A stretch of 20,243 bases of DNA from Candidatus Nanopusillus sp. (GCA_049414405.1 JBMSAQ010000013.1:1-20243); one strand, 5' to 3'; positions 2,345-19,766 are shown, numbered from the stretch's first letter. A program made the numbers and translations. The notes: generated by a model not told the origin, from the letters alone.

Positions 2345-2866
2345 ATGGACATATTAAATATAATATTGTTAGCTCTAATAACTTTCTATATAATTTATGT
2401 AATATTTATTAAAATAAAAAAGAAAAATTCAGAAATTGGAGATTATGTAGTTGAAAAAATAGCTGAATTATTTGTAATTATGCCAATTCCTATATTTGTT
2501 GCCCTTTATTCTTTAACTCAGTCTACAGTTCTTCTTTATTTAGCTGTAATTTTAGGGATGGCACTTTTATTTATAGAAGGTAAAACAACCAACCTACACT
2601 TATTGAAGGAAATTAAAAACAACACAAATAAGCATAATTTAGAGAAACTCTTTATAAAATTATTTATGAATATACTACCATTTGCATTATCTGTAATGAT
2701 ACTATATAGTCTTTTATTATTAATAATGTTTCCACTAAATATAGTCTTAATAGATACAGTCCTCATGATAATGCCTCTATTAATAGTAATAATAATGGGA
2801 AATATAATGACTTCTATTTTAATGTATAATAATATTAAAAGGCAAAAACAACAAATAAATCACTAA
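2345..2866 (+). CDS. hypothetical polytopic membrane protein (173 aa)
   Basis: Several hydrophobic helices separated by short charged loops. It is tightly packed in a same-strand gene array. The antisense ORF 2536-2766 is judged spurious. Confidence 0.6.
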   Translation: MDILNIILLALITFYIIYVIFIKIKKKNSEIGDYVVEKIAELFVIMPIPIFVALYSLTQSTVLLYLAVILGMALLFIEGKTTNLHLLKEIKNNTNKHNLEKLFIKLFMNILPFALSVMILYSLLLLIMFPLNIVLIDTVLMIMPLLIVIIMGNIMTSILMYNNIKRQKQQINH

Positions 2867-2877
2867 AATATAAAAAT

Positions 2878-3189
2878 ATGTTATTAAAAATAATAAATCA
2901 AAAAATAAAAGAAATGGATGATAAAAAAATGAGAAGTCTTTATGAAACATTCTCATGGCTAATTCTTTTTATATTATTATTTGGTGCAATGTATCATAAA
3001 GCCATAGAAAAGAGTAAAGAATTAGAAACAGTAGATTTAATAATGTTACTTATGGAATCGCTTACATCTGCACCATTTTATATTTTAATAGCAGTAGAAT
3101 TATTATTAATTGTTCTATTTATAGATACCTGGGATAAAATGGTTAAAAAAATTAGAAAAAATAAATTAAAAAATGGCCAAAGTAGATAA
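2878..3189 (+). CDS. hypothetical membrane protein (103 aa, ~2 TM, basic C-terminus)
   Basis: Two hydrophobic segments (WLILFILLFGAMY and FYILIAVELLLIVLFI) and a Lys-rich tail. It starts 11 nt after the previous stop. Confidence 0.55.
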   Translation: MLLKIINQKIKEMDDKKMRSLYETFSWLILFILLFGAMYHKAIEKSKELETVDLIMLLMESLTSAPFYILIAVELLLIVLFIDTWDKMVKKIRKNKLKNGQSR

Positions 3190-3207
3190 AGAAAAATTAG
3201 CAAATAA

Positions 3208-3396
3208 ATGACTAAAATAACGATTAAAATTTCGTATGATAATTACATAGAATATAAACAAATACTCGCAAAAATAGAAGGATTAGCAAAAACTTTAAAT
3301 ATAAATCATTATAGGTTAAGATATCTAATATTAAAAGAATTTGCAAATAATGAAAAATGGCAAAATGAATTAATAGAAAAATTAAAGAAAATATGA
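3208..3396 (+). CDS. hypothetical small soluble protein (62 aa); possible ribbon-helix-helix-like DNA binder
   Basis: The N-terminal beta-like KITIKIS is followed by two predicted helices, which is an RHH-like pattern but not diagnostic. It is the only non-membrane protein inside the membrane-protein island. Confidence 0.45.
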   Translation: MTKITIKISYDNYIEYKQILAKIEGLAKTLNINHYRLRYLILKEFANNEKWQNELIEKLKKI

Positions 3397-3500
3397 ATAT
3401 ATCCCCTATTGATTTATTAGTAATAGCTTTTATAATTAGTGCAATTGTTTTAGCTTTAGAGGATGAAATAGCTGAAAATTGCAAAGATAAAAAACAATGA
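3393..3500 (+). CDS. hypothetical micro-protein (35 aa, single TM)
   Basis: Found by hand. The ATG at 3393 overlaps the preceding TGA as ATGA. Translation is MNISPIDLLVIAFIISAIVLALEDEIAENCKDKKQ, with a stop at 3498-3500. Confidence 0.3.
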   Translation: MNISPIDLLVIAFIISAIVLALEDEIAENCKDKKQ

Positions 3501-3522
3501 AGAATAACTAAGATAAAGAAGA

Positions 3523-3870
3523 ATGGATAAAAAAGATATAAAAAAGCCTATGGAAAAGATTATCATGCCATGTTGTATAAAAGATAATAGAGATAATATA
3601 AATAATAAAGATATTATTGGAGAACAGATAAGTATTATTACTGAAAAATATTTTGAAATATATGTTACTTTTATGTTTTCAAATATTATTATCATTGCTT
3701 TAGTAGATAATATATTAAATATGCCTATAATGAAAAGTATATTTATGTTTATTATGATTTTTGGAGCTATTATTTTAGCACTTATATATTTTTTAGAAAT
3801 ATATGCATTATTAGAAAAATCGAAAAGCAAAAGAGACCAAAATGAATTGTTAAAAATAAATAATGAATAA
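3523..3870 (+). CDS. hypothetical membrane protein (115 aa; charged N-terminus, 2 TM)
   Basis: It is on the same strand as its neighbours and its end overlaps the next start (3863). I prefer it over the antisense ORF 3456-3902, which is low-complexity Ile/Leu/Phe. Confidence 0.5.
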   Translation: MDKKDIKKPMEKIIMPCCIKDNRDNINNKDIIGEQISIITEKYFEIYVTFMFSNIIIIALVDNILNMPIMKSIFMFIMIFGAIILALIYFLEIYALLEKSKSKRDQNELLKINNE

Positions 3871-4366
3871 AAAATGTATAAATAAACAAGAAGAAATAAC
3901 ATATGTAGGTCCTGTCGCTTTACTTTTTTTAATGCTTATTGGTTTTCCATTTTTTCTTGTTTTATTTCATAATTTATTAATTCATGGGCCTAATTTTTTA
4001 AGTGATGAAGGGAGCATAATATCTATAGGTGTTATTTTAGGAATTAATCTTATTATATTTGATTCTTTTATAAGATTAAATACTTATGTAAAAAATGGAC
4101 AAATAGATAAGGAAGAAAAGCATGCAGCTTTTCTTACATATAGTCTCTATTTGGCGTTGTTAAATTTCCCGCTTTTCATCGTTATAATTCTTTTTTTATT
4201 AGATGTTTTGCCAAATACATATAATATAAAGGATATAGTCATTAGTATTTCTACTTTAGGATATCTTTTTATTATAATATTTATTATCATAAAAATAATT
4301 ACTTTTCCAAATAATGAGAATTCTAAAGAGGCTAAAGATTTAGAAAAATATAAAGATGAATCATGA
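3863..4366 (+). CDS. hypothetical polytopic membrane protein (167 aa)
   Basis: About 4 hydrophobic helices and an acidic/basic C-terminal tail. It shares an ATGA overlap with the next gene at 4363-4366. Confidence 0.6.
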   Translation: MNKKCINKQEEITYVGPVALLFLMLIGFPFFLVLFHNLLIHGPNFLSDEGSIISIGVILGINLIIFDSFIRLNTYVKNGQIDKEEKHAAFLTYSLYLALLNFPLFIVIILFLLDVLPNTYNIKDIVISISTLGYLFIIIFIIIKIITFPNNENSKEAKDLEKYKDES

Positions 4367-4785
4367 ATAAAAAAATAATAAAAAATCTTTCTGAAATTCT
4401 TGCAGGAATTACATATTTTATATTACTTTTTAGTATAATATACTATACAATAAAAAATAATTTACCAATATCAATATCCACTATAGCAAAAATAGGATAT
4501 TATATTCCACCTTATATTAAAATACTTATAATGGTATTATTTATTGCATCACTTATAATTAAGTTATATGAAATAAATAAAGATACAAATATAGAAGGTA
4601 AAGATTATATAACAGCAATTATATTAGTTATGTTGCTATCTACACTTACGCTTTTTACATTATATATTATTGGAATAAGTTCTATACCTTTATATCCAAA
4701 TTCATGTACTAATAATAGCACAATAACTCTAATTATAATTGACTTATACTGTCAAAACTTTCTTAACATTGAAAACAAAAAATAA
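4363..4785 (+). CDS. hypothetical polytopic membrane protein (140 aa)
   Basis: Hydrophobic helices and an ATGA-coupled start. It is followed by a 38-nt gap carrying a TATA-like box. Confidence 0.6.
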   Translation: MNKKIIKNLSEILAGITYFILLFSIIYYTIKNNLPISISTIAKIGYYIPPYIKILIMVLFIASLIIKLYEINKDTNIEGKDYITAIILVMLLSTLTLFTLYIIGISSIPLYPNSCTNNSTITLIIIDLYCQNFLNIENKK

Positions 4786-4791
4786 GATTTA

Positions 4792-4803
4792 CTTTATAAA
4801 TAA
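4792..4803 (+). promoter_or_regulatory. putative TATA-like box (ctttataaataa)
   Basis: It is centred about 27 nt upstream of the ATG at 4824, with no SD motif. It shares the CTTTATAAA core with the arms of the 2086-2133 palindrome. Confidence 0.4.
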
Positions 4804-4823
4804 TTATAAACAAAATATATAAT

Positions 4824-5249
4824 ATGGCAGATACAAATTTAACTTATAATATTACAATGATCATAACCCCTGGGGATATATCATCTATATACTACTATCC
4901 TATATTGTTTTTATTCTTAATGATTTTACCAATAATTATTATTTTTGTAACATTAAAGCTTAAGCTATCTGAAGAAGCAAAAATAATTATTTTCTTTTTA
5001 AATTTAGTATTTTCTTTATTTTTGCCTATATTACTTACTGCTATTTATATGGAATTTCAAACATTAACTAATATCTATGGTCAACTTAATCTTTATAATC
5101 AAATAATCTTTAATATTATGACGGTACAAAACTTTATGATGTTTAGTTATCTTATTTCTATATTGTATCAAGGTTTATGGTTATTTATCACAGCATATAT
5201 TTTTGTTAATCTGTTTTTAATGATAGCATATATGATTAAAAAATGGTAA
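4824..5249 (+). CDS. hypothetical polytopic membrane protein (141 aa)
   Basis: About 4 hydrophobic helices. It has its own promoter-like element. Confidence 0.6.
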   Translation: MADTNLTYNITMIITPGDISSIYYYPILFLFLMILPIIIIFVTLKLKLSEEAKIIIFFLNLVFSLFLPILLTAIYMEFQTLTNIYGQLNLYNQIIFNIMTVQNFMMFSYLISILYQGLWLFITAYIFVNLFLMIAYMIKKW

Positions 5250-5250
5250 A

Positions 5251-5261
5251 AATATATAAAT
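5251..5261 (+). promoter_or_regulatory. putative TATA-like box (aatatataaat)
   Basis: It is centred about 28 nt upstream of the ATG at 5284. Confidence 0.4.
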
Positions 5262-5283
5262 CAATTAAAATATATTATATATT

Positions 5284-5571
5284 ATGGTGGGCCTAGTGCC
5301 AAAAAGATTTACTTTTGGCGTAGCAATATGGGCTTTTATAATGAGCTTTACCTTAAATTATACAATATTATATATGATACCTACTATATTAACAGCTCCT
5401 CTATTATCTATTATAGCAATGGCTGGGGTATTTTATATTGTAGCATTAACATGGTACCTTATGCATAGAGTAGATACTTATAACCCATATAATGCATGGA
5501 AAGCATATGTATTGTTAATAATATTTTATGGTGTTATGGCCTTAATCATTTATTTAGCTTTTAGAATATAA
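5284..5571 (+). CDS. hypothetical membrane protein (95 aa, ~3 TM)
   Basis: Hydrophobic helices. Composition is slightly less AT-biased than the preceding genes. Confidence 0.6.
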   Translation: MVGLVPKRFTFGVAIWAFIMSFTLNYTILYMIPTILTAPLLSIIAMAGVFYIVALTWYLMHRVDTYNPYNAWKAYVLLIIFYGVMALIIYLAFRI

Positions 5572-8432: not shown

Positions 8433-8840
8433 ATGAACTGGTGGGCAGCAATGTTCATAGATTTGTTGATCGTAATATTAGTAACAGGTATGATAGCAAC
8501 ACTAGCAATAAATATATTGGGTGTATTTGGTACAGCATTATTACCAATGTCAGTAAGGCAATTAGGAAATGGTTTTGATCAATTAGGGCAATTAAACGCC
8601 ACTTATGGAAGTGACCCAGCTGTGGCAGCACTTGTTAATTCATTAAGAAATAATATGGTTACTATAGTAAATGATCAGGTACAGGGAACAACTCAAGCTG
8701 TTACCGGATTAAATCAAGCAATTCAATTCTACATAGGATTAGTACCTGTAGTAGTAATATTAGTAATTGCTGGAGCATTCATTGGAATTGTATTACAATT
8801 CGCTGGTGGAATGTATAGGCAAGTAGCTGTGACAGTCTAA
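8433..8840 (+). CDS. candidate major capsid/structural protein (135 aa) with two hydrophobic helices flanking a polar Gly/Gln/Asn/Thr core
   Basis: The N-terminal hydrophobic segment is FIDLLIVILVTGMIATLAINILGVFGTALLP. The C-terminal segment is FYIGLVPVVVILVIAGAFIGIVLQFAGG. This architecture and the LVP-containing second helix resemble SSV1 VP1-type capsid proteins. The gene has visibly higher GC and different codon choice, its own promoter, and T-tracts downstream. Confidence 0.5.
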   Translation: MNWWAAMFIDLLIVILVTGMIATLAINILGVFGTALLPMSVRQLGNGFDQLGQLNATYGSDPAVAALVNSLRNNMVTIVNDQVQGTTQAVTGLNQAIQFYIGLVPVVVILVIAGAFIGIVLQFAGGMYRQVAVTV

Positions 8841-8867: not shown

Positions 8868-9365
8868 ATGTCTAAATATGTATACTTTAAGAATATTTAT
8901 TTTGGAAAAGATTCTTTAGCCAAAATTTTCTATGATAAAGATAAAATAGAAGATTCTTTAGATTATAATGCCGTAGTTGTTTCATTCTTAATAGATGCTG
9001 CAGATATTTTAAATCAAAATGCCATATTATCACGTATTGCATATTATGATGGTACTAACATAAGACCTATTTTAATGGAATGGAATAAAGAAACAATTGC
9101 CGGACGTACTAAAATTTTAATGGATTTAGGTAATATTTATGATAAAAATACAAAAGATTTATTAAAACACTTTTTAAATCAACTAAATGCTGATGATAAT
9201 TATGTAAAATCTTTAGCTTTATATTTAGCTGTTATTATTGCATCTAAAAAAGGTTTGGGTCTACATCATCAACAAATCTACGATAGGATAAATTATCTTA
9301 AATCAATTGGAATAGTTGAATCGGTTGAAAAGGTAAAAAAATTATACGAATTATATAAAAGATGA
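8868..9365 (+). CDS. hypothetical soluble protein (165 aa)
   Basis: An ORF with an ATGA overlap to the 1001-aa gene. I recognise no motifs. Confidence 0.6.
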   Translation: MSKYVYFKNIYFGKDSLAKIFYDKDKIEDSLDYNAVVVSFLIDAADILNQNAILSRIAYYDGTNIRPILMEWNKETIAGRTKILMDLGNIYDKNTKDLLKHFLNQLNADDNYVKSLALYLAVIIASKKGLGLHHQQIYDRINYLKSIGIVESVEKVKKLYELYKR

Positions 9366-12300
9366 GCAATACATTATTATCAAATCAACAGGATAATGTC
9401 CAAAGAATACAATTAATGGATACATCTTCAGCCGTAAATTCTGCTTTAAGTCAATATGGTTATACTTTATCATATGGTGATACTGAAAGACTTAAAAGTT
9501 TACAACCCGGCCAAACTACGACTGTATATGCAACCGGTAATAGATACGGAGCTATATTAGAAGTAACTTATCATAATGATGGTACTTATACTATTAGATC
9601 TACAACCCCATTAAATGTAAGTGGCCAATGGATAGATATAAATCAAACCGTAAGGTCTCCTACAGTTACAGTAGGTTATTCTAGTGGTAATATTCAATAT
9701 ATTGCTACTACAGGATATTCTACTACAGGGAACGTATATTTAAGAGAATCGGGTACTCCAGGTAGTACTACTTTAGCTACATATAATGTTAATGTGAGCG
9801 TACCTATTACACATCAAATAACGGATACAGAAATAAGATTTAGTCCGGGCACCCCTCAAGTAACTACTACTTTACAATCTATAAATATACCTTCTCCAAC
9901 TCAAGAACAATTACAAAATAGAGCAATAACTCAATCACAAATAAACAATAATTTACTTTTTAGTTATTCATCTTTACCTGAAAATAATTTGTGGTTTGGT
10001 TATTCACGCATGCCATCAACAAATACCCAAACTACTAATGTTAATGCTAATAATCAAACAAATTTATTTAATAATCCAATAATTAATACAATAACATCTT
10101 TGCCCGTAATTAGAAACGTATATAATGTAGGTAGAAATGTTTATCATACAATGTCATCTATGGATTGGGGAGATGTTTGGAAAAGGCTTAATCAACCAGA
10201 ATTACGTACGCCATCAGGAGAAAGGGCTAATGTTATTTCTTTTACAATGCCACCAATTGGTCCTGCGAGTGCTACAGGAATTACAAATATATTTAGAGCC
10301 GGTGGAAATACTTTAAGATCTACATCTTTAAGTAGTCCTACGGTAAGGGAATTAGCCAAAGAATACGCTATAAATACTGCCGGATTTACGGCATTAAGTT
10401 TAGGGATTAATGAAGCTCATAGTAGGTTAACAACCGGTGAAGGTTTAACTGCCGAACAAGCAAAGCGAATAATTGGTGAATCCGTTGCTTTTGCGATACC
10501 ATTTACTACATTTGCTAAAGGTTTTTCATTAGCATCTCATCCGGTATTAAGTACTTTTGTAAAAGAACAAACATCACCCACAAAAGCAATATTAGCAAAA
10601 TCTTTATATGATGTGGGTGGTGGTTTTGTATCAGGTACTGGTGCGAGTTTTGTAAGTCAAGGATTTAGTAAAGCAATGGGCTGGAGAGAAGATATTAACC
10701 CATATGAAGCTTTAGCAATGGGTTCATTTACTGGGGGTACTACTGCAGCAATTAGAGGTTTTCAAGTATTACATGCAGCAAAAACTGGAAACTATGGCGC
10801 ATTTGCCACTAGAATAATTCCAGAAGAAATTAAAGATGTGAGTTTAACCCCTATTTCTACTGTGGTTTCTAAAGATGGATCTATAATAACATATTATGCC
10901 GGTAAAGCCATAGGACAGCCACAAATTGGTCAAAAAGTATTAACACAAAAAGATATACCAAATATAAAACCAATTGAATATCAATTTTTAGCAATGGAAA
11001 GATTAGAACCAATTTTGCCTAAAACAGAACCCATAGGAAATGCATTTATGACTACAATGGGTTATAGAGGTGAATTTATAGCACAAGCTGGTGTAAAAAG
11101 AACAATTGGAAAAACAGAAGGTGAACTTATGGGTTTATTTGTACCCACAGAAAAAATAAGTCCTAGAGACTATGAATTATGGGTCCGAGCTAATTTTAAA
11201 GATTTAATTAAAAAACATCCCGAATTTATTCAATCAAAAGACGTACCTAAAGAAGGTTTACAACTTTCAAAACAAATGTTAGAGGGTAAACCCATAAAAG
11301 AAATAGAAAACCCAAATGTTAAAACCCTTAATATATATTATCCATTATCTGAATTACAAACTAGAAATGTAGATTTTAGTAAAAATATAGCCGGTTATAT
11401 TGTGTTTAGGTCTAGAGGGGGTATTAACTTACCTAAAGGAGAACATTATGAATATGTAAAAGAAGGGGTGGGTTTAGCTTATTATGTTGGGGGGGATAAA
11501 AATCAATTAGCTCAAATAGCCACAACATGGGGAATTATGCGTGATCAATATAAAAAAGGATGGTTTGGTACCCATCAATATGTTTCCGTAGGATCCCCAG
11601 AAAGAGGTTTTAATGTATTTGGTTATGGTAAAGCTGTGGATCCAGTAGGGGTGGAATTAACCTTAACTAAAACCATTGAAAGAACAACCAATATAAAAGG
11701 TGTGCCATTAAAAAACAAACAAATAGAGCAAATAGCAGAACAACAATTAAAACAATTATTAGCATATTCCTCTGAGAGAGTAATACCACCTTATTATAAC
11801 CCAAAGGCACCCCCAGCTTTCGGTATACCATCATTAAATATCATTAATGTTAATCAACAATTATTACCAAATTTGAATAACATTATAAGACCTGAATTTA
11901 ATATGGAAAAATTAAAGGAAAGGGTTACCCAAACCATGCCAAAATTAGATGTAGTCCAAACAACGCAAAATGTTAGGCAAAATATAATTTTACCATTTCA
12001 AGGATTAAGATCTTTACAATTACAAGGATTGCAAACCCAACAACGGATAGGTCAACAAAGAATAATAGCACGTGATCTAATAGTAACGTATGATATTTAT
12101 AGAAGTACAATACCAAAACCAATGGTTACTATGGATGTTAAAACTATTAGAATAAACCCTCCACCACCAATAGAACCAACATTCATACCAATAAGACCTA
12201 GAATAGCCCCCATACCACCATCATCAAGGCCTCCTTTCATACCACCATTCTTACCACCAATGGTACCACGCATAGGTCCATCTCAACCAGGTCCACCAAT

Positions 12301-12367
12301 ACCATTAGGCAGAGCTAAAAAGGTTGAATTAGATGTGGTTTATACATTTAATAGGTTATGGGGATAA
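9362..12367 (+). CDS. large structural-type protein (1001 aa): Ser/Thr-rich N-terminal region, Gly/Ala-rich amphipathic core, Gln-rich then Pro-rich C-terminus
   Basis: A long uninterrupted ORF with higher GC. The central segment is GFTALSLGINE...GGGFVSGTGASFVSQGFSKAMGW...GSFTGGTTAAIRGF. The C-terminal segment is PPPPIEPTFIPIRPRIAPIPPSSRPPFIPPFLPPMVPRIGPSQPGPPIPLG. No signal peptide is seen. Confidence 0.75.
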   Translation: MSNTLLSNQQDNVQRIQLMDTSSAVNSALSQYGYTLSYGDTERLKSLQPGQTTTVYATGNRYGAILEVTYHNDGTYTIRSTTPLNVSGQWIDINQTVRSPTVTVGYSSGNIQYIATTGYSTTGNVYLRESGTPGSTTLATYNVNVSVPITHQITDTEIRFSPGTPQVTTTLQSINIPSPTQEQLQNRAITQSQINNNLLFSYSSLPENNLWFGYSRMPSTNTQTTNVNANNQTNLFNNPIINTITSLPVIRNVYNVGRNVYHTMSSMDWGDVWKRLNQPELRTPSGERANVISFTMPPIGPASATGITNIFRAGGNTLRSTSLSSPTVRELAKEYAINTAGFTALSLGINEAHSRLTTGEGLTAEQAKRIIGESVAFAIPFTTFAKGFSLASHPVLSTFVKEQTSPTKAILAKSLYDVGGGFVSGTGASFVSQGFSKAMGWREDINPYEALAMGSFTGGTTAAIRGFQVLHAAKTGNYGAFATRIIPEEIKDVSLTPISTVVSKDGSIITYYAGKAIGQPQIGQKVLTQKDIPNIKPIEYQFLAMERLEPILPKTEPIGNAFMTTMGYRGEFIAQAGVKRTIGKTEGELMGLFVPTEKISPRDYELWVRANFKDLIKKHPEFIQSKDVPKEGLQLSKQMLEGKPIKEIENPNVKTLNIYYPLSELQTRNVDFSKNIAGYIVFRSRGGINLPKGEHYEYVKEGVGLAYYVGGDKNQLAQIATTWGIMRDQYKKGWFGTHQYVSVGSPERGFNVFGYGKAVDPVGVELTLTKTIERTTNIKGVPLKNKQIEQIAEQQLKQLLAYSSERVIPPYYNPKAPPAFGIPSLNIINVNQQLLPNLNNIIRPEFNMEKLKERVTQTMPKLDVVQTTQNVRQNIILPFQGLRSLQLQGLQTQQRIGQQRIIARDLIVTYDIYRSTIPKPMVTMDVKTIRINPPPPIEPTFIPIRPRIAPIPPSSRPPFIPPFLPPMVPRIGPSQPGPPIPLGRAKKVELDVVYTFNRLWG

Positions 12368-12379
12368 TAATATAATAGG

Positions 12380-12790
12380 ATGAGAGCTATAGGGTCATTA
12401 ATATTAAAAGTAACCGTAGTTATATTATTAGTAATATTTATAGGTATTTTAGCGATGGTCTTATCTACAGTTTTTAATACAACATCAATTTTAGCTGGGG
12501 TCGGGTATACGGCGCAATATAGTGCATATGGTATTTCTTATAAAAATTGTTTAAGTAATGCTAATTTTTACGGATATAATGCATCCGTATGTGATAATTT
12601 GCTTAATGTAACAAATAATACGGCAAACACTTTATTATGGACGGGAAATTATGCAGGAACTTTTTCAAATCCTATGTTATGGGCTATAATATTTATTATT
12701 ATAACTGCGGGGTTATATGTTACGTCAATACAGGCAGTACAATTTGGGCAAAAGATAACCGTAGTAAAAACTAGAAGAAAAAGAAAATGA
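12380..12790 (+). CDS. membrane protein (136 aa) with N- and C-terminal hydrophobic helices, a glycosylation-sequon-bearing core and a basic tail; candidate minor structural protein
   Basis: The helices are LILKVTVVILLVIFIGILAMVLSTVF and MLWAIIFIIITAGLYVTSI. The core carries sequons (NAS, NVT, NNT) and the tail is KTRRKRK. It has an ATGA overlap with the 1131-aa gene. Confidence 0.6.
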   Translation: MRAIGSLILKVTVVILLVIFIGILAMVLSTVFNTTSILAGVGYTAQYSAYGISYKNCLSNANFYGYNASVCDNLLNVTNNTANTLLWTGNYAGTFSNPMLWAIIFIIITAGLYVTSIQAVQFGQKITVVKTRRKRK

Positions 12791-15700
12791 TCAAAAAATT
12801 CCTTAAATTATTTGGAATATTTCTTTTAATATTCTTTTCTTATAATGTTTATTCTTTAAACGGATGGCAATATTATAGGCAAATTACAATAAATAACACC
12901 CAAAACCCAAATAATTTAATTGATTATCAGATATTGGTGACTTTAGACACACAATCTTTGATATCACAGGGTAAAATGAAATCGGATTGTGGCGATATAA
13001 GATTCACAGATTCTGATAGAACCACATTATTAAATTATTGGGTAGAATCGGGTACGTGTAACTCACAAAATACTTTTATTTGGGTAAAAGTCCCACTTAT
13101 ACCGGGAAATTCTAATAAAACTATATATTTATGGTATGGAAATCCAAACGCTATAAGTTTAAGTAACGGAGATTTAGTTTTTGAATTCTTTGATGATTTT
13201 GATGGAAATACTTTAAACACATCTAAATGGACCGTGAATGGTTATGATGGGTTTTGGGGGGTTTTTTATAGTGTTTCTAATTCAATGCTTACCATATGGT
13301 CGGATAATAGATGGCGAATTTTAAGAATGAATAGGAATTTTGGACCGAATGATACAATAGCCATCGAAGTAAAATTTAGAAAAACTGCAGCAAGTGCGTG
13401 GCATGTTAATTATTTAGTACAACATAATGGTGCAAATCATAATAGATTAGGACTTAGTGATGAACATTACCCAGGAGATGATATGGGAATACAATTGGTT
13501 GTTAATAATAATTGGTATTATCCGAAAAATTTTGGTTCATTTTCTAATAATGTATGGTATATTTCAAGAATTATAAAAAAAGATAGTACTACTTTATATT
13601 TAGATGTTTTAACTTCAAATAGAGGTTTTATTAATTCATATGAGACTACACAATCGGCATGGTCATCCGTAATATGGACATGGGTTACTTGGCAATTTCA
13701 TAATACTAATGTTACGTATGATTGGGTTTTTGTTAGAAAATATACAAACCCGGAACCAATTATTATTTTAGGATCTGAACATGTGCCTTTAACTTCAACA
13801 ATTTCAGTAAATACATTAACAAATTTCCAATTTAATGTATCTATATATAACCTAATTTCCGAATATGTAAATTACACGGTTTATTTAAATGGTTTAATAT
13901 TAACAACCAATAATATTTCAATAAATGCGTTTCAAACTTTAACAACCCCTCATGAATTTCCTTATTTATTAAATCAATCGGGTACTTATAATTTAACTGT
14001 AATAGCTTATGGGCAAACCTCTAGAGTCACATCTGTTTCAATTGCTATATTTAATATTCAACTAGATCAATTAAATGTAACTTTAGAACCCTATTATACT
14101 TATAATAACATAAACTATACAAATCTTTATAATTCAAACTTAAGGATAACTTATTATTGTATGAGACCTAATAATACTTTAATAATTTATAATAATATAA
14201 CAAATAGAACATTGCAAATTAATTTATCATGTAATTACATACAAACAATAAATAATTTAAGAGTTAATCTTACCCCAATTTTACAAAATAATACTTTAAA
14301 CCATATTAATGGATCATTATTATATGGCAATCAATCATTTAGAAATATAAGCTTTATACCATTATGGAATACATTAAATATAACTTTAACTACAAACATT
14401 CCAGCATTTTCTATATATACATCACCATTAAGTTTAAATTATTCTATAAATGTAAGAGATGTTTTACCAAACGTTGTATGTAATATTACATTATATGATA
14501 ATAATACAATTGTGCAAACACATCAAACAACATTAACAAATGCGTCATCACCAATATATTCATGGACTATATCACAAGCACCAATACATAACCTTAGGTG
14601 GCATATTTATTGTTATAATCCAGTAAATTTAACATATATCATCGATCAAAGGAATGGTACTTTTTACTATAATAGCTTTGATTTTAGAATGGAAGATACT
14701 GGAAATGTACCATCAAATATATCTTATTCATTATCATTAATGTGTAACAATGGTACTACTATTTATTCAAATGCAAATATGACTACTTATACAATATATG
14801 CATGGACTAATGATCAATGTAACTTTATATTAGTATCGCAAAATATTCAGGGTATTACTTATACTATGGGTTATAGTACTAATTTATTATCAAGATATTC
14901 ACATCAATGGCCAATATGTTTAATAAATCCACAATTATTGTATTATAGTAATTTAATAGTAGGTAATCAACCATATCAAGATACATTAATAGCAGTATTA
15001 AATCCACAAACAGGATGTTATTTATTAGGATCTTATCTATATTTATTATCATCTAATGTTTATTACGCACCAATATCGGTAAGAACCGGGGCATTATATT
15101 CAATAAGAGTAAATAATACATTTTTAGCGACGGTTCAAGGGCAGCAACAGCAAGCAATTTCTTTAGATTCTTTAATTAGTAGAGTAATAGCATCAAATAA
15201 TCAAACAATAAATCTTATAGTAGGTTATCCTGTAGTTAATTATACAAACGAAAGTGGAGTACCTAAATTAACAATTATTGCGCCAGCAAATATTTCATCG
15301 GCAATAGTAACTATATACCAAAACAACCAAATATATACCAATTATACTTTTGAATCTATAGGTTTGAATATATTAGATATATATTTAAGAGATTTGCCAT
15401 CTAATTATACATTTAGTTCTACAAACTATGTAGTAGTTAAATTAACATATACCAATGGACTTACCCATACTGTTACCTATCCATTTGATTATCTTGAAAG
15501 AATTGCATTACCGGCATTTTTAGTATATTTCTTATCAATAATACTATTATATACATGGATTAGGACTTTTTCTTATTATCAAAAGTTAATTTTCGCAGGC
15601 TTTGGTTTAGTATTAATATTGGCTTTATTAACATCATTTATAATAGATTCTATCGCACCTTTATTCTTAACTGCAGGTATATTTTTATTCTTTATAGCAG

Positions 15701-16182
15701 ATGTTATAAATAAAACATACTTACCACAATTAACACAAGATCATCCTTTATTTAAACTAATCTATATGGCATTTAAATTCTTTATGGTATTATCTTTTGT
15801 AGGTACCTTTTTAGTATTTTTATTGGGACCTCAGGGATTATATCATATAGGAATTCCCGAAATAGATAAATATATGAATGACATGAAAAGAATAATGGAC
15901 TCTTCAAGCTCTACTATAACAGAAATGCAACGTAATATGTTTTTTGTACCATTCGGTATAGTAATATTAGCAGCCAGTATAATTCAAGCTATATGGTTAG
16001 GAATACAAATAATGGGGGTATTTATATCATATATGATATCGCCATTATCCGTAGTATTAGGACCATTTGCGAATATATTGGCGATGGTAATTCAAGGAAT
16101 ATTAGTATACGGATCAATAATAGTAATAGTAGTGTATATGATAACAATGGTTTTCGCATTGGCCGGAAGAAATCTATTTTAA
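12787..16182 (+). CDS. secreted/anchored adhesin-like glycoprotein (1131 aa): signal peptide, DUF2341-like domain, ConA/LamG-like lectin-type domain, sequon-dense beta-rich region, polytopic C-terminal membrane anchor
   Basis: The signal-like N-terminus is MIKKFLKLFGIFLLIFFSYNVYS. The DUF2341 signature is GWQYYRQITINN...YQILVTLDT...CGDIRFTD...LNYWVE...IWVKVP...IYLWYGNP. The following FDDFDGNTLNTSKWTV is typical of ConA-like/LamG folds. I counted roughly 40 N-x-S/T sequons by hand. About 6-8 TM helices run from about nt 15500 to the end. Confidence 0.8.
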   Translation: MIKKFLKLFGIFLLIFFSYNVYSLNGWQYYRQITINNTQNPNNLIDYQILVTLDTQSLISQGKMKSDCGDIRFTDSDRTTLLNYWVESGTCNSQNTFIWVKVPLIPGNSNKTIYLWYGNPNAISLSNGDLVFEFFDDFDGNTLNTSKWTVNGYDGFWGVFYSVSNSMLTIWSDNRWRILRMNRNFGPNDTIAIEVKFRKTAASAWHVNYLVQHNGANHNRLGLSDEHYPGDDMGIQLVVNNNWYYPKNFGSFSNNVWYISRIIKKDSTTLYLDVLTSNRGFINSYETTQSAWSSVIWTWVTWQFHNTNVTYDWVFVRKYTNPEPIIILGSEHVPLTSTISVNTLTNFQFNVSIYNLISEYVNYTVYLNGLILTTNNISINAFQTLTTPHEFPYLLNQSGTYNLTVIAYGQTSRVTSVSIAIFNIQLDQLNVTLEPYYTYNNINYTNLYNSNLRITYYCMRPNNTLIIYNNITNRTLQINLSCNYIQTINNLRVNLTPILQNNTLNHINGSLLYGNQSFRNISFIPLWNTLNITLTTNIPAFSIYTSPLSLNYSINVRDVLPNVVCNITLYDNNTIVQTHQTTLTNASSPIYSWTISQAPIHNLRWHIYCYNPVNLTYIIDQRNGTFYYNSFDFRMEDTGNVPSNISYSLSLMCNNGTTIYSNANMTTYTIYAWTNDQCNFILVSQNIQGITYTMGYSTNLLSRYSHQWPICLINPQLLYYSNLIVGNQPYQDTLIAVLNPQTGCYLLGSYLYLLSSNVYYAPISVRTGALYSIRVNNTFLATVQGQQQQAISLDSLISRVIASNNQTINLIVGYPVVNYTNESGVPKLTIIAPANISSAIVTIYQNNQIYTNYTFESIGLNILDIYLRDLPSNYTFSSTNYVVVKLTYTNGLTHTVTYPFDYLERIALPAFLVYFLSIILLYTWIRTFSYYQKLIFAGFGLVLILALLTSFIIDSIAPLFLTAGIFLFFIADVINKTYLPQLTQDHPLFKLIYMAFKFFMVLSFVGTFLVFLLGPQGLYHIGIPEIDKYMNDMKRIMDSSSSTITEMQRNMFFVPFGIVILAASIIQAIWLGIQIMGVFISYMISPLSVVLGPFANILAMVIQGILVYGSIIVIVVYMITMVFALAGRNLF

Positions 16183-16188
16183 CCTAAA

Positions 16189-16521
16189 ATGGATCAAATA
16201 AACTATATAAATAATACAATTCAAATGTCCGAAATTGTTAACAAAACATTACAATTTATAACATTTAAAGATATTTATTCATACATATTATTAAATATTC
16301 TTTTAGTCGCTTTAGTGATTGCATTAGAAAGCCAAAGGGTTGAAAATATCGTTATATTATTATTAGAAATAGCTATAATACAATGGTTTTTTGTATTTGC
16401 ATTATTAGGATTATTAAGTATAGGTTATATAGATTTTCCACCAACAGTAATAATACAATATTTTATGGCACCGGCAGTAATATTATTAGTATTAGCTTTA
16501 GTATTATCTAAAGTAACATAG
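16189..16521 (+). CDS. hypothetical membrane protein (110 aa, ~3 TM)
   Basis: Hydrophobic helices. It starts 6 nt after the previous stop, and its stop directly abuts the next ATG (tagATG). Confidence 0.55.
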   Translation: MDQINYINNTIQMSEIVNKTLQFITFKDIYSYILLNILLVALVIALESQRVENIVILLLEIAIIQWFFVFALLGLLSIGYIDFPPTVIIQYFMAPAVILLVLALVLSKVT

Positions 16522-17868
16522 ATGGTATATATAAAGGATATATCAGATATAAGACGTTTAAAATCCGACGACATATTTGAGTTGTTTTCTAAAGGGGAAT
16601 TATATAAAAAAGTATTAGATAAAAAATGGTCAGATAAAAGCAACATTATTAAAAAGTTTCAAAACCCGTTTGATTTTTTAGAAGGTACTGCAGAAACAAT
16701 TAAACAAAGTGTAACATCATCAATTGATGAAGATTATTGGTTATTGGTTTTAGGTGAACCCGGTACGGGTAAATCTACTTTATCCGTAGCATTGTATAAA
16801 CATATTATGTATAAGTTAGGTTATACTTTAGATCAAATTAAAGATCATTTATATATAGATGTTTGTTATTTACCATATGATTATTTAGGCAGGATTAATT
16901 TACATGGTGATGAAATTGAAGAAAAAGGCAAAATATTCCCACATCCTATAATTTTAGATGAGGCTCATAATATGTTTGATTTATTTGCTGAGGGTTCTAC
17001 AAATGTGGCGAGAAAAATATTACAAAGAATATTTGAAATAAGAGAATATAGATTAGTCCATATAGTAAATACACAAATACCTCGCCATATTGCTAAAAGG
17101 GCTTTAGAAAGATTTCATTCATTAATAATTTTATGGAAAGAACCCATATATTTTGGTGATGAAAAAACAAAAGCTTTAGAAGAAACATATCTAAGCTATA
17201 TGCAAAATATTTTAAAAATAAAACCACGGACGGATGAAGGTATTGGGTATTTTTTATGGGGGGTACTTTATGGCGAAAGTTTTACACATGATGTTTTAGG
17301 ATGGATTATAAAGCACGGAGTTAGAATTAGAGAATTAAGAAAAATTCTTATAAGATTTGATCCTAAATTTATTTTCCCTATGACATTAATATTGCATGAG
17401 GTTTCAGATTTAAGACCTATCTATTTTAATATAAAACTATATAATAATGGAATTAAGAAATTATATGATGAATTTGGAATAAAAGGATCTAAAAAAACAA
17501 TATTTTTAAAAGCTTTAACCGAATTAGGTAAATATTTTAATAAGATGGATCCAAATAAAAGAAATGAAAAAGGATATATTGTATTAGATGAACCCATACT
17601 TATAGAAATAGATAGTAAAACAGAATATAAAGTATTAAAAAAAATAGGCCGTGTAAAATTTAATATAGACCTTGAAAAGATCTCTAAAAAAACTAAAAAG
17701 AAAGAAAAAACAAAGACTAAAAAATTAATAGAAACATCCTCTTATTCTGATGAATCTTACGTTAATATTTATAGTATTAATCCTAAAATTTATAATTTCC
17801 TAAAAAGCAATTATATTACATTACAAAAAAGATATAAATTACATGAAGCTATAGGATTTAAGCTATGA
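16522..17868 (+). CDS. P-loop NTPase (448 aa), candidate DNA packaging/transfer or replication ATPase
   Basis: Walker A is LGEPGTGKST (nt 16753 onward). Walker B is PIILDEAH (DEAH at nt 16957-16968). A Lys-rich KKTKKKEKTKTKK segment lies near the C-terminus. Confidence 0.75.
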   Translation: MVYIKDISDIRRLKSDDIFELFSKGELYKKVLDKKWSDKSNIIKKFQNPFDFLEGTAETIKQSVTSSIDEDYWLLVLGEPGTGKSTLSVALYKHIMYKLGYTLDQIKDHLYIDVCYLPYDYLGRINLHGDEIEEKGKIFPHPIILDEAHNMFDLFAEGSTNVARKILQRIFEIREYRLVHIVNTQIPRHIAKRALERFHSLIILWKEPIYFGDEKTKALEETYLSYMQNILKIKPRTDEGIGYFLWGVLYGESFTHDVLGWIIKHGVRIRELRKILIRFDPKFIFPMTLILHEVSDLRPIYFNIKLYNNGIKKLYDEFGIKGSKKTIFLKALTELGKYFNKMDPNKRNEKGYIVLDEPILIEIDSKTEYKVLKKIGRVKFNIDLEKISKKTKKKEKTKTKKLIETSSYSDESYVNIYSINPKIYNFLKSNYITLQKRYKLHEAIGFKL

Positions 17869-18352
17869 TGATTTTCTTTTTCTTTTTCATTATATAGATT
17901 GTATTTATTATATTTATAACGAATATAATAAGAGAACCCACTATATAACCTAAAATATTACCTATGGTTTTTGAAATTATTAAGAATATTACCCAAAATA
18001 TTATAGATGTAATTGATAAATAGATTAACATATGAATAAGAGGGGCTTTTTTGTATAAGATGTCAACTAATTTAAATTGTAATTTTAGTTTTTCTAATCC
18101 TGTTGATAATACCGATTCTTCAGTTAATTTATTTATATTATATATTTTGTTAATTATAGGATATGTTACTTTCCAAAATGCAAAATCTATAAAACTATTT
18201 ACTGGAACTTTAGCGCCATATACATTTATAGTTAATATTGGTCTTTTAGTCAATTTACTAATATAGCTAAATACCGGTAAGAATAATAGAGCACTTACTA
18301 CAATACCTATAATAAAAGAAATTATAAAATTATGATCCATGTTTCCACCCAA
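17858..18352 (-). CDS. hypothetical membrane protein (164 aa, ~3-4 TM)
   Basis: Hydrophobic helices. It overlaps the upstream AAA+ gene, and the start may instead be the Met at 18340. Its 3' end overlaps the convergent ATPase gene by 11 nt. Confidence 0.55.
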   Translation of the reverse strand: MGGNMDHNFIISFIIGIVVSALLFLPVFSYISKLTKRPILTINVYGAKVPVNSFIDFAFWKVTYPIINKIYNINKLTEESVLSTGLEKLKLQFKLVDILYKKAPLIHMLIYLSITSIIFWVIFLIISKTIGNILGYIVGSLIIFVINIINTIYIMKKKKKIIIA

Positions 18353-19766
18353 AAGTACCTTTTACCAAATCTTTAGCCACATTTTCAATTATGCCAGCAT
18401 TTAAATCTGTTTCAGGATCATCTACAATAGTATTTAATTCTAAACCTCTTAACTTTTTAGCTATCATAATAGCAAATGTTCTAGACCTGCCTTTTAAATC
18501 TGAAAGTTTTGATGAGTTATACTTTGCTTTAAATATTTCTTGCTTTATTTGGTTAATCATTGCAATAAAATAAGGCGCACTCATTGTTTTATCTATTATA
18601 TATTTATTTACATCAAATTCTTCATCTATTATACTTATAATTGCTAATCTATCTACAAATGCACTAATTGATCCATGATTTAACCCCCTCTTAGCTAATT
18701 CCCCCTTTAACCATTCTCTCGCATCTTTTATAAAGTCTATTAAATTTTCATGACTAATTTTATCAACATTACCTAAAAATATAAATCCCACATCCCTTTT
18801 AATTACATCTCTCTCAGATTTAGATGAAGCACTTCCTTTTTCTATGTGCCATACCCCTTGTGCTAATCCACTTTCTGAATATGATATAAATTCATCAAAT
18901 TTATCTTTTTCCAAATTTTTATCAAATGCATCTATTACAATATAGTCATTATGAAATATGGCTCCCAATATTCCAGAACGTGCGTCCATAATTAATCTTG
19001 TTCTTGAAGGAAATTTTCCAAATATTGCAATTTTCATAATATTAATTAACTTTACATAAAATGTTGTTTTACCTGTGCCGGGTTTTGTAAATTGTAAAGT
19101 ATGGGTATACTTTGTAAAGTCATCATTTAATTTTATGGGAAATAGTGATAAAACCCTAGGTAAATATATTTTTCTTAATAATATATATTCATCTTTATTC
19201 ATATCAAAGGGGTTTATTCCTATGGCACATAAGAACAAATCAAACCAATTAACTTTATATTTTTCTTTAATTTCTAATAATTCTTTAGTCCTTATTTCAA
19301 CCTTTGCTAAATCCATATAAGATTTTACATAGAATTTATTACGCTTTTTATCTTTTGCAATAATATTTAAATATAATAATCTTGCTTTCATGACCTCACT
19401 TAATATATCGATTAAATCTTTATCGTTTATATCGGGATTATTTCTTTTTAAAGTATCTTCATTAAAAACAACATTAACACCATTTGATAGTTTTGCTATA
19501 AATTCTAAGGGAGATCTTACCTTTATCTCAGTAACCCGTCCAATAAATTCTATAGAACCTTTTCTTAATAATTTTAATATAAATTCTTTTTCCTTTTCGG
19601 GTTTGCTTAAATATATAATATCAACAATATTTAATTTCCAATCATGTATAAATGGCAAATATGGGCTAATACCTTCATATTTTTCTTCAGAAAGATCTAT
19701 ATCTTCAGGTATTGTATTCATAAAAATTGGTTCATTAAAAATTTCTTTTAAGTCATAATCAACCAT
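18330..19766 (-). CDS. AAA+ ATPase (478 aa) with MCM/MoxR/Mg-chelatase-like (helix-2-insert clade-like) motifs; candidate replicative or remodelling ATPase
   Basis: Walker A is FTKPGTGKTT (nt 19062-19085). Walker B is YIVIDAFDKN (compare MCM IDEFDK). The sensor-1-like motif is GFIFLGN. The Arg-finger-like motif is SAFVDRLAIISI (compare SRFDL / ALLDRF). The ~220-aa N-terminal domain is unrecognised. Confidence 0.65.
   Translation of the reverse strand: MVDYDLKEIFNEPIFMNTIPEDIDLSEEKYEGISPYLPFIHDWKLNIVDIIYLSKPEKEKEFILKLLRKGSIEFIGRVTEIKVRSPLEFIAKLSNGVNVVFNEDTLKRNNPDINDKDLIDILSEVMKARLLYLNIIAKDKKRNKFYVKSYMDLAKVEIRTKELLEIKEKYKVNWFDLFLCAIGINPFDMNKDEYILLRKIYLPRVLSLFPIKLNDDFTKYTHTLQFTKPGTGKTTFYVKLINIMKIAIFGKFPSRTRLIMDARSGILGAIFHNDYIVIDAFDKNLEKDKFDEFISYSESGLAQGVWHIEKGSASSKSERDVIKRDVGFIFLGNVDKISHENLIDFIKDAREWLKGELAKRGLNHGSISAFVDRLAIISIIDEEFDVNKYIIDKTMSAPYFIAMINQIKQEIFKAKYNSSKLSDLKGRSRTFAIMIAKKLRGLELNTIVDDPETDLNAGIIENVAKDLVKGTFGWKHGS

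Follow-up and report, generated by a model that had tools for sequence, protein, structure and literature searches.

A candidate receptor-binding spike with an exchangeable lectin-like head, a sequon-rich stalk and an orphan hydrophobic base in a NAV1-type viral element of Nanoarchaeota

Introduction

The contig JBMSAQ010000013.1 of Candidatus Nanopusillus sp. (assembly GCA_049414405.1), here called the window and analysed as one whole stretch of 20,243 nucleotides, encodes a 1131-residue protein in which a lectin-like N-terminal region is followed by a long segment crowded with N-glycosylation sequons and by a C-terminal block of hydrophobic helices. What does such a protein do, and does it serve a cell or a virus? 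A preliminary description, drawn up from the DNA before any database search, had suggested a host-recognition or adhesion protein of an enveloped or membrane-derived particle. We followed up this suggestion by computational analysis of the protein, its relatives and its neighbouring genes, and conclude with a probability of roughly 0.6 that it is the receptor-binding, tailspike-like protein (hereafter the spike) of a virus related to Nanoarchaeotal virus 1 (NAV1), to our knowledge the only virus described for Nanoarchaeota. Related proteins and loci are referred to below by P and L numbers.

Results

Genomic setting and overall plan of the protein

The best named homologue of the spike was NV1_37 of NAV1 (MN056826.1), which was 52% identical over aa 334-1131 (E = 8e-275) and was also the top structural match in BFVD (A0A5P9U552, E = 1e-83). 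NV1_37 and its neighbours are annotated as hypothetical proteins in the source record. The gene order around the spike is common to NAV1 and four metagenomic elements (L001, which is NAV1, L065, L066/L067, L068 and L069) and runs from two genes for products of ~140 and ~164 aa through the gene of a giant protein (1001-2082 aa) to the spike gene, which has a gene for a ~125-aa membrane protein on either side; next come a ~440-aa ATPase gene and, on the other strand, a gene for a ~140-aa product. No gene is called in the slot of the upstream ~125-aa membrane protein in the NAV1 record. Other window genes encode a D12 methylase and a small tyrosine integrase, and a further one encodes a BrxL-like ATPase that is found in NAV1 as well. 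The GC content is 26% in the window and 27% in NAV1. A fragment of a spike (P0022) was binned as Candidatus Nanopusillus. From the NV1_37 homology, the shared gene order and this binned fragment, the window reads as a NAV1-type viral or proviral genome segment, and a viral setting of the gene is supported by synteny with NAV1. The window held no tRNA gene or attachment-site clue, and no terminal repeat indicating a complete circular genome.

Five parts were recognized in the protein (Table 1): a signal peptide, a DUF2341 beta-sandwich, a ConA-like jelly roll, a beta-rich stalk of ~570 aa and a C-terminal block of 6-7 hydrophobic helices. The start codon overlaps the stop codon of the upstream membrane-protein gene (ATGA). 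Open reading frame (ORF) analysis and hydropathy bore out both the 1131-aa reading frame and the signal-peptide-like N-terminus described earlier; the predicted signal has a K-rich n-region and a hydrophobic core closing in VYS|L, and within the spike family it is 58-96% identical among relatives, whether or not their heads differ. An AlphaFold2 model built on 52 sequences had a mean predicted local distance difference test score (pLDDT) of 63, and a second AlphaFold run a mean of 69. A search of the PDB with the whole protein sequence gave no match. The proposed layout of lectin-like head, glycan-rich stalk and multi-helix hydrophobic base holds as an architecture, with glycosylation as its predicted element.

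Mosaic structure of the spike family

Region-by-region comparison of 17 full-length family members showed two types of N-terminal sandwich and at least nine unrelated types of jelly roll (40% identity clusters) over a conserved stalk core (pairwise identity median 67%, minimum 49%), with four types of the last stalk domain (S4) plus base. Heads and bases assort independently: P0003 and P0005 share a head, and their bases are 73% and 25% identical, respectively, to that of the window. The identity of S4 tracks the type of base and not the core, and S4 and the hydrophobic base thus appear to travel as one recombination module. Over 11.4 kb ending near spike codon 500, L068 and L069 are 99.9% identical in DNA; beyond this point the value is 76-83%, and from codon ~816 on, through the downstream membrane-protein and ATPase genes, it is ~50%. 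To judge from these steps, the pair represents a clean natural recombinant that marks module boundaries at spike codons ~500 and ~816.

The distribution of variants supports the head as a hypervariable, cassette-swapped part that behaves like a receptor-binding domain. The host-recognition role that had been assigned to it gains from this cassette-type variability at the distal tip and from the viral context, the ligand being presumed. As for a diversity-generating retroelement acting on the head, the window had no direct repeat longer than 43 nucleotides and none touching the head, and Pfam scans of ten window ORFs gave no reverse transcriptase match.

Identities of S4 plus base, of the downstream membrane protein and of the ATPase rank alike over six loci (Table 2), unlike those of the upstream genes (24-50% identical), which do not follow that order. 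Because of this shared ranking, the base is taken to travel with the two downstream genes.

Table 2. Amino acid identity (%) to the window of the spike base and the products of the two genes behind it in six related loci.
Locus	S4 + base	Downstream membrane protein	ATPase
L068	71	81	80
L065	43	45	55
L066	42	41	54
L001 (NAV1)	41	39	55
L069	28	34	37
L070	26	27	34

The head module in cellular proteins

The full 312-aa head was 71% identical to a module of the Aenigmatarchaeota protein P0025 and 67% identical to one in P0027 of Paceibacterota, a lineage of the candidate phyla radiation (CPR). With the jelly-roll cassette alone (aa 131-335) the values were 68% and 65%, and the DUF2341 part was 94% identical to viral P0002 and 76% to P0025. 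The signal peptide and sandwich were 62-66% identical to the Nanopusillus cell proteins P0086 and P0106, which carry an ordinary single C-terminal anchor. Genes around P0025 encode proteins in 90%-identity clusters with Aenigmatarchaeota proteins, and those around P0027 (RNase Y, UvrC, SecG, FtsH) fall in 90%-identity clusters with Paceibacterota/Minisyncoccia proteins. A Cys-rich linker is shared by the viral spike P0015 and Nanopusillus P0086 (49% identity over 120 aa, E = 3e-17). The Paceibacterota copies suggest that the head module has been exchanged between domains within one habitat. Two such surface proteins were observed, P0027 (L062 8001-10235) and P0028, with the head module at 65-67% identity placed behind repeats that look tail-fibre-like by eye (GIGTTTP...HV.GDITA).

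The cellular proteins P0025, P0027 and P0086 have the same ~310-aa head (sandwich only in the case of P0086), and the module closes in the same VRKYTxPEP junction. They differ from the spike in that the module stands in tandem arrays or beside other domains, sequons are not enriched (z = -0.6 to 1.5) and the anchor is single-pass or missing; none has the viral stalk or base. SIRV4 ORF37 and an SBRV1 protein also have DUF2341 modules, as does a 1134-aa Methanomicrobiales caudovirus protein whose gene adjoins O-acetyltransferase, tRNA and integrase genes. The domain has been linked to PilY-type pilus-tip adhesins (PMC4858521).

A head and signal peptide this close to surface proteins of Nanopusillus, Aenigmatarchaeota and Paceibacterota would also be expected if the virus encoded a cell-surface adhesin that stays in the membrane of the infected nanoarchaeon and does not enter the virion. 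Such a protein might change how the cell attaches to its partner archaeon, favour contact between cells or keep out superinfecting viruses. A polytopic anchor is in keeping with a protein that resides in a membrane, and the placement of the spike in the virion is a prediction. We nevertheless consider this unlikely. In every related element the gene keeps its place in a conserved block, alongside those for the ATPase, the giant protein and the small hydrophobic proteins; hypervariability of a cassette at the distal tip is typical of receptor-binding proteins, and host versions are single-pass, the special base being confined to the viral family.

The hydrophobic base

Hydropathy and the two AlphaFold runs placed base helices at 908-927, 930-950, 957-982, 987-1019, 1024-1049 (amphipathic), 1051-1091 (long) and 1093-1125. 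This agrees with the 6-8 transmembrane helices proposed earlier for the last ~225 residues, 6-7 being predicted as embedded. Positive charges follow helices 1 and 3 and recur at the C-terminus, and this placement favours an N-out/C-in topology, which would have seven spans with the long helix counted twice. Invariant residues in 20 sequences were L921, Y922, W924, Y931, G964, D972, P987, F1004, N1050, G1092-P1093, I1102 and F1123. In a wider set limited to the transmembrane part, position 972 was D or E (D in 7 of 8 diverse sequences, E in one).

Neither PHROG nor NCBIfam gave a match to the base, nor did any Pfam family at E ≤ 1 (aa 880-1131), and Foldseek of the C-terminal model against the PDB matched the FN3-like S4 alone, with nothing for the helical part. 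An exhaustive phmmer search with aa 805-1131 against 1.84 billion representatives returned seven matches, of which five were clear fragments of spikes of the same family and the two weakest, a repeat protein (E = 1e-4) and a 57-aa fragment (E = 1e-3), were both marginal. A profile search with an alignment of the base alone, through a word index ill-suited to hydrophobic queries, found four matches, none outside the spike family. The base had no homology to SSV1 VP4, to the downstream 110-aa protein or to a capsid-like 135-aa protein of the window (described below). The C-terminal domain was also considered as a MotA/TolQ/ExbB channel. Bacterial DUF2341-MotA/ExbB fusions (generic ion-transporter A subunits) likewise join an N-terminal DUF2341 to a polytopic C-terminal domain (PMC12505986). 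This candidate was rejected, as MotA_ExbB was among the Pfam models without a match and no clear relatives were found outside the viral family.

The co-variation of base, downstream membrane protein and ATPase, with a recombination breakpoint inside the spike gene, invites a reading in which these three form a membrane conduit or a fusion or extrusion apparatus and the ectodomain serves only for targeting, as in the inovirus pIII-pVI-pI system or the PRD1 packaging vertex. In Ff phage the order gIII-gVI-gI encodes an adsorption protein, a small hydrophobic protein and a P-loop ATPase. The window mirrors this order, which we regard as a lead and not as evidence. An acidic residue (D972) and NP/GP motifs are conserved in the base helices, and one of six ATPase homologues gave a weak match to Zot (E = 0.009). 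That match is confined to a single member, the base is unlike known channels or fusogens, and the linkage may reflect simple adjacency. An apparatus chiefly for entry is in our judgement improbable, although it overlaps with, and is compatible with, a receptor-binding spike.

The head: DUF2341 sandwich and jelly roll

The DUF2341 family match was strong (PF10102, 107.2 bits against a cut-off of 23.4, profile positions 1-83 of 84) and covered aa 67-150, not the ~25-120 given in the preliminary description. The AlphaFold model has a single beta-sandwich at aa 28-120 (pLDDT 92-96), so the earlier range fits the structural domain and that of Pfam fits the boundaries of its model. The ConA-like assignment likewise stood in part. 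The segment on which it had been based, FEFFDDFDGNTLNTSKWTV, lies at aa 132-150, and the AlphaFold prediction gave a jelly roll after the sandwich, up to ~aa 335 (pLDDT mixed, 47-93); Laminin_G_3, DUF1080, GH16 and other ConA/LamG Pfam models had no match to the spike at E ≤ 1. An alternative cassette in the relative P0003 does match Laminin_G_3 (E = 9e-23). Foldseek aligned the head model with the ConA-like folds 6t2o/6t2p, 4w65, 5ly8, 2a5z and 1oq1 (probability 1.0, target template-modelling (TM) score 0.54-0.59), among which 6t2o/6t2p are endo-O-glycanases of glycoside hydrolase family 16 (GH16; TM 0.55-0.57), 5ly8 is a carbohydrate-binding module (CBM) of the phage J-1 Dit protein and 1oq1 is galectin-like.

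With GH16 enzymes among the best structural matches, and a putative endo-mannanase core in the tailspike of the fusellovirus SSV19 (PMC9351363), the head might be a GH16-like depolymerase that clears the glycan coat of the host instead of a lectin. This is very unlikely. A regular-expression search of aa 24-335 found no catalytic ExDxxE motif, there was no GH match in Pfam, and the fold fits non-catalytic CBM and galectin-like domains equally well. Because the catalytic motif is absent, we infer that the head is a binding module and not a hydrolase.

The stalk and its sequons

The spike has 39 N-x(not P)-S/T sequons (26 NxT and 13 NxS), of which 33 lie in aa 336-905. The ~40 counted earlier in ~550 residues was therefore a slight overcount; the strong excess stands. 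Shuffling the residues of this segment 5000 times gave 15.4 ± 3.3 sequons (z = 5.3), and no shuffle reached 33. Sequons were at expectation in the head (5 observed, 5.9 expected) and the base (1 observed, 0.5 expected). The stalk has 5.8 sequons per 100 aa and the other ORFs of the window 0-2.9. All 18 full-length relatives showed the excess in the stalk only (z = 4.3-7.8), their heads and bases being at expectation, and 24 alignment columns hold a sequon in at least 15 of 19 sequences. Set against the rest of the window and against the cellular proteins that share the head, as the preliminary description had proposed, the excess was thus found in the viral stalk only. That the density is a meaningless by-product of an AT-rich genome (26% GC in the window; 14% Asn and 20% Ser + Thr in the stalk) can be set aside at the sequence level with near certainty, given the shuffles, the restriction to the stalk across relatives, the conserved positions and an NxT:NxS ratio of 2:1.

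Conserved Cys pairs in the stalk core are 458/482, 565/609, 653/678 and 711/744, in a beta-rich model with Ig/FN3/MG-like Foldseek matches. These four pairs, the one in DUF2341 and the sequons fit an extracytoplasmic string of beta-sandwich domains. No Pfam, PHROG or NCBIfam family matched the stalk. Spikes of hyperthermophile viruses are reported to carry more sequons (PMC10919331), and Nanopusillus cells bear surface glycans (PMC4935971).

Comparison with known spikes

NV1_37 has a homologous stalk and base (its alignment covers 71% of the query), the same signal peptide, the same syntenic position and an equally sequon-rich stalk (45 sequons, z = 6.9). It differs in its head, which consists of a distant DUF2341-like sandwich and an unrelated jelly roll, in having one extra, duplicated stalk domain, and in a base of another type, 39-41% identical.

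By layout, the closest characterised analogue appears to be the fusellovirus VP4 tailspike. The VP4 of SSV19 comprises a core directed at glycans, beta-rich protrusions that are flexible, a beta-sandwich and, at the C-terminus, a hydrophobic bundle of three helices. A two-helix capsid protein stacks on this bundle, which is built into a hydrophobic capsid lattice instead of serving as a plain bilayer anchor, and glycosylation of the tail is heavy (PMC9351363). The sequence of SSV1 VP4 (C792) shows 19 sequons (z = 2.5) in addition to a signal peptide, and its end is formed by three hydrophobic helices. Both kinds of protein combine a signal peptide, a large beta-rich, sequon-bearing ectodomain with a glycan-directed module, and a beta-sandwich before a hydrophobic helical bundle, although the VP4 bundle sits in a virion shell and the window spike is known from sequence and models. 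The bundle has three helices (~70 aa) in VP4 and seven (~225 aa) in the window spike, the core of VP4 is endo-mannanase-like and not DUF2341/ConA-like, and SSV1 VP4 as a whole has 2.4 sequons per 100 aa against 5.8 in the spike stalk. The multi-pass anchor, called unusual in the preliminary description, accordingly has a precedent in the VP4 bundle; what is unusual is its size, its orphan status and its co-variation with two downstream genes. Receptor-binding spikes of archaeal viruses are already a known kind, and the base is far larger than the fusellovirus precedent.

Pleolipovirus VP4 has a single terminal anchor. The pleolipovirus order VP3 - VP4 - ORF6 - NTPase resembles that of the window in the sequence of small membrane protein, spike, conserved protein and nucleoside triphosphatase (NTPase), and spikes of thermophile viruses are again sequon-richer (PMC10919331). 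Pleolipovirus VP4 differs in its unique V-shaped fold, and no HRPV-6 spike entry was among the top 50 Foldseek PDB matches to the window spike. In a tblastn search of phage and archaeal virus records nothing matched the 448-aa NTPase of the window, and the base of the window spike has 6-7 helices.

Features and neighbouring genes

Coordinates refer to the window. Helices, domains and ligand classes are predictions from sequence or models.

Table 1. Spike gene of the window, its predicted parts and the adjoining genes.
Feature	Position	Strand	Remarks
Upstream 136-aa membrane protein	12380..12790	+	N- and C-terminal hydrophobic segments, 4 sequons; 119-127-aa gene in same slot of related elements
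Spike ORF	12787-16182	+	ATG at 12787, stop at 16182; 1131 aa
Predicted Sec-type signal peptide	12787..12855	+	aa 1-23, MIKKFLKLFGIFLLIFFSYNVYS; hydropathy; helix at aa 2-23 in AlphaFold model
DUF2341 beta-sandwich	12856..13176	+	aa 24-130; Cys68/Cys91 pair; PF10102 E = 6.1e-31
ConA-like jelly-roll head cassette (model)	13177..13791	+	aa 131-335; closing motif VRKYTNPEP; presumed glycan-binding
Conserved sequon-rich stalk core	13792..15201	+	aa 336-805; beta-sandwich domains, four consecutive conserved Cys pairs
Base-proximal beta-sandwich S4	15202..15486	+	aa 806-900; pLDDT 84-93 and 77-86 (two runs); FN3/CBM-like Foldseek matches
Orphan hydrophobic base (model)	15487..16182	+	aa 901-1131; 6-7 putative membrane- or lattice-embedded helices and one amphipathic external helix
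Downstream 110-aa polytopic membrane protein	16189..16521	+	co-varies with spike base
448-aa P-loop NTPase	16522..17868	+	Walker A GEPGTGKS, Walker B ILDEAHN; weak AAA-type Pfam matches

Several observations concern other parts of the window. The 1001-aa giant protein (9362-12367, +) has fewer sequons than expected (4 against 9.6), a proline-rich C-terminus and, by eye, no signal peptide; its counterparts are 1124 to 2082 aa long and 24-35% identical, with no family match. A 135-aa protein (8433-8840, +) contains no Lys or Glu and has two long hydrophobic helices split by a 65-aa loop, with a sequon in the loop in 4 of 5 aligned relatives. This layout recalls the spindle-virus capsid proteins VP1/VP3; hhalign to SSV1 VP1/VP3 found no similarity. 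About seven consecutive genes at 2345-5571 (+) encode small (95-173 aa), very hydrophobic multi-helix proteins, an unusual density for a 20-kb element. The BrxL-like protein (478 aa, 18330-19766, -) matched the ATPase domain PF13337 (E = 1.8e-8) and phrog_6542 (E = 3.6e-23), has a 491-aa homologue in NAV1 and may be a replication or maintenance ATPase of the element. Between the integrase and methylase genes, a 32-nucleotide direct repeat (850-881 and 936-967; 88% identical, 86 nucleotides apart) contains a palindromic core (CTATA...TATAGAC) and may serve in regulation or recombination. The GC fraction is 0.29-0.35 at 9000-13000, which covers the giant-protein gene and the spike head, and 0.21-0.28 elsewhere in the window. 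A few kb downstream of its spike, NAV1 encodes a GT1/GT4-type glycosyltransferase and a methyltransferase (L001 17783-19722, -); none of the ten scanned ORFs of the window was a counterpart, and the window may be an incomplete genome.

Discussion

The analysis favours a receptor-binding, tailspike-like protein of a NAV1-type virus. This reading draws on the NV1_37 homology, the conserved gene order and the integrase, D12 methylase and BrxL-like ATPase genes of the window, and also on the DUF2341 and jelly-roll head, the swapping of at least nine jelly rolls over a conserved core and the presence of DUF2341 in rudiviruses and an archaeal caudovirus. A role in viral adhesion is well supported by this context. 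An extracellular, glycosylated stalk is suggested by the sequon excess, the 24 conserved columns, the four Cys pairs and the NAV1 GT1/GT4 glycosyltransferase, together with the published observations on Nanopusillus glycans and thermophile spikes (PMC4935971, PMC10919331). That the base would anchor the protein in a virion, possibly an enveloped one, is consistent with the SSV19/SSV1 VP4 layout, the L068/L069 breakpoint, the parallel ranking of base, downstream protein and ATPase, and the single anchor of host DUF2341 proteins.

The following scheme is proposed. The signal peptide would send ~880 residues over the host membrane, where the host oligosaccharyltransferase would decorate the stalk at up to ~33 sequons, and the glycans may protect and stiffen the disulfide-braced string of beta-sandwiches in a hot, probably acidic habitat. 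The seven-helix base would remain in the membrane until, along with the co-inherited 110-aa membrane protein, it is taken up into the virion as part of a hydrophobic shell or an envelope, the adjoining P-loop ATPase presumably acting in assembly. On the particle, the distal DUF2341 and ConA-like head would bind a surface glycan or glycoprotein of the target cell. Swapping of the jelly-roll cassette would change the host range, with cassettes drawn from a pool that also supplies surface proteins of DPANN archaea and CPR bacteria.

Several points weigh against this reading. Spikes of this family are known from genes and predicted structures, and their location on a particle and the occupancy of their sequons are predictions; the models are only moderate, with large stretches of the stalk below pLDDT 50. 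No homology to any characterised viral spike was found by hhalign, tblastn or PDB sequence search: hhalign of the family profile against SSV1 C792 gave a probability of 3%, and tblastn against 50,697 phage and archaeal virus records returned no fusellovirus or pleolipovirus match. IMG/VR viral contigs, scanned with the protein and with the family alignment, yielded no relative. Classification of the ATPase (PDB profile, NCBIfam, Pfam and tblastn against phages) gave generic P-loop signals alone. The linkage of the base to the downstream genes could arise from adjacency, and 3-4 independent base types underlie it.

A broader proposal joins two ideas and is doubtful, though possible. The base with its seven helices might make up one membrane machine together with the 110-aa protein and the P-loop ATPase, evolving as a unit and serving either assembly by extrusion or delivery of the genome; this would be an archaeal counterpart of inovirus pIII-pVI-pI. 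The heads, in turn, might be drawn from an inter-domain pool of adhesins by which ultra-small episymbionts (Nanoarchaeota, Aenigmatarchaeota and CPR Paceibacterota) hold partner cells. If the second part were true, the virus may recognise the glycans by which its host attaches, perhaps even the surface of the host's own host.

For the spike family, the analysis gives NV1_37, annotated as hypothetical, a testable role as a host-recognition spike, and maps the domain boundaries needed for expression of the head and for tests of its ligand. With one sequon per 17 residues at conserved positions, the stalk has a high density and would be well suited as a system in which to study glycan shielding under hot conditions. 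An entry point to the construction of an unclassified archaeal virion is provided by the orphan base and the partners linked to it. The ~310-aa lectin-like module is 65-76% identical across proteins of a nanoarchaeal virus, Aenigmatarchaeota and CPR bacteria, apparently from related hot-spring samples. This similarity points to a mobile set of adhesin parts that the smallest cellular symbionts have in common with their viruses.

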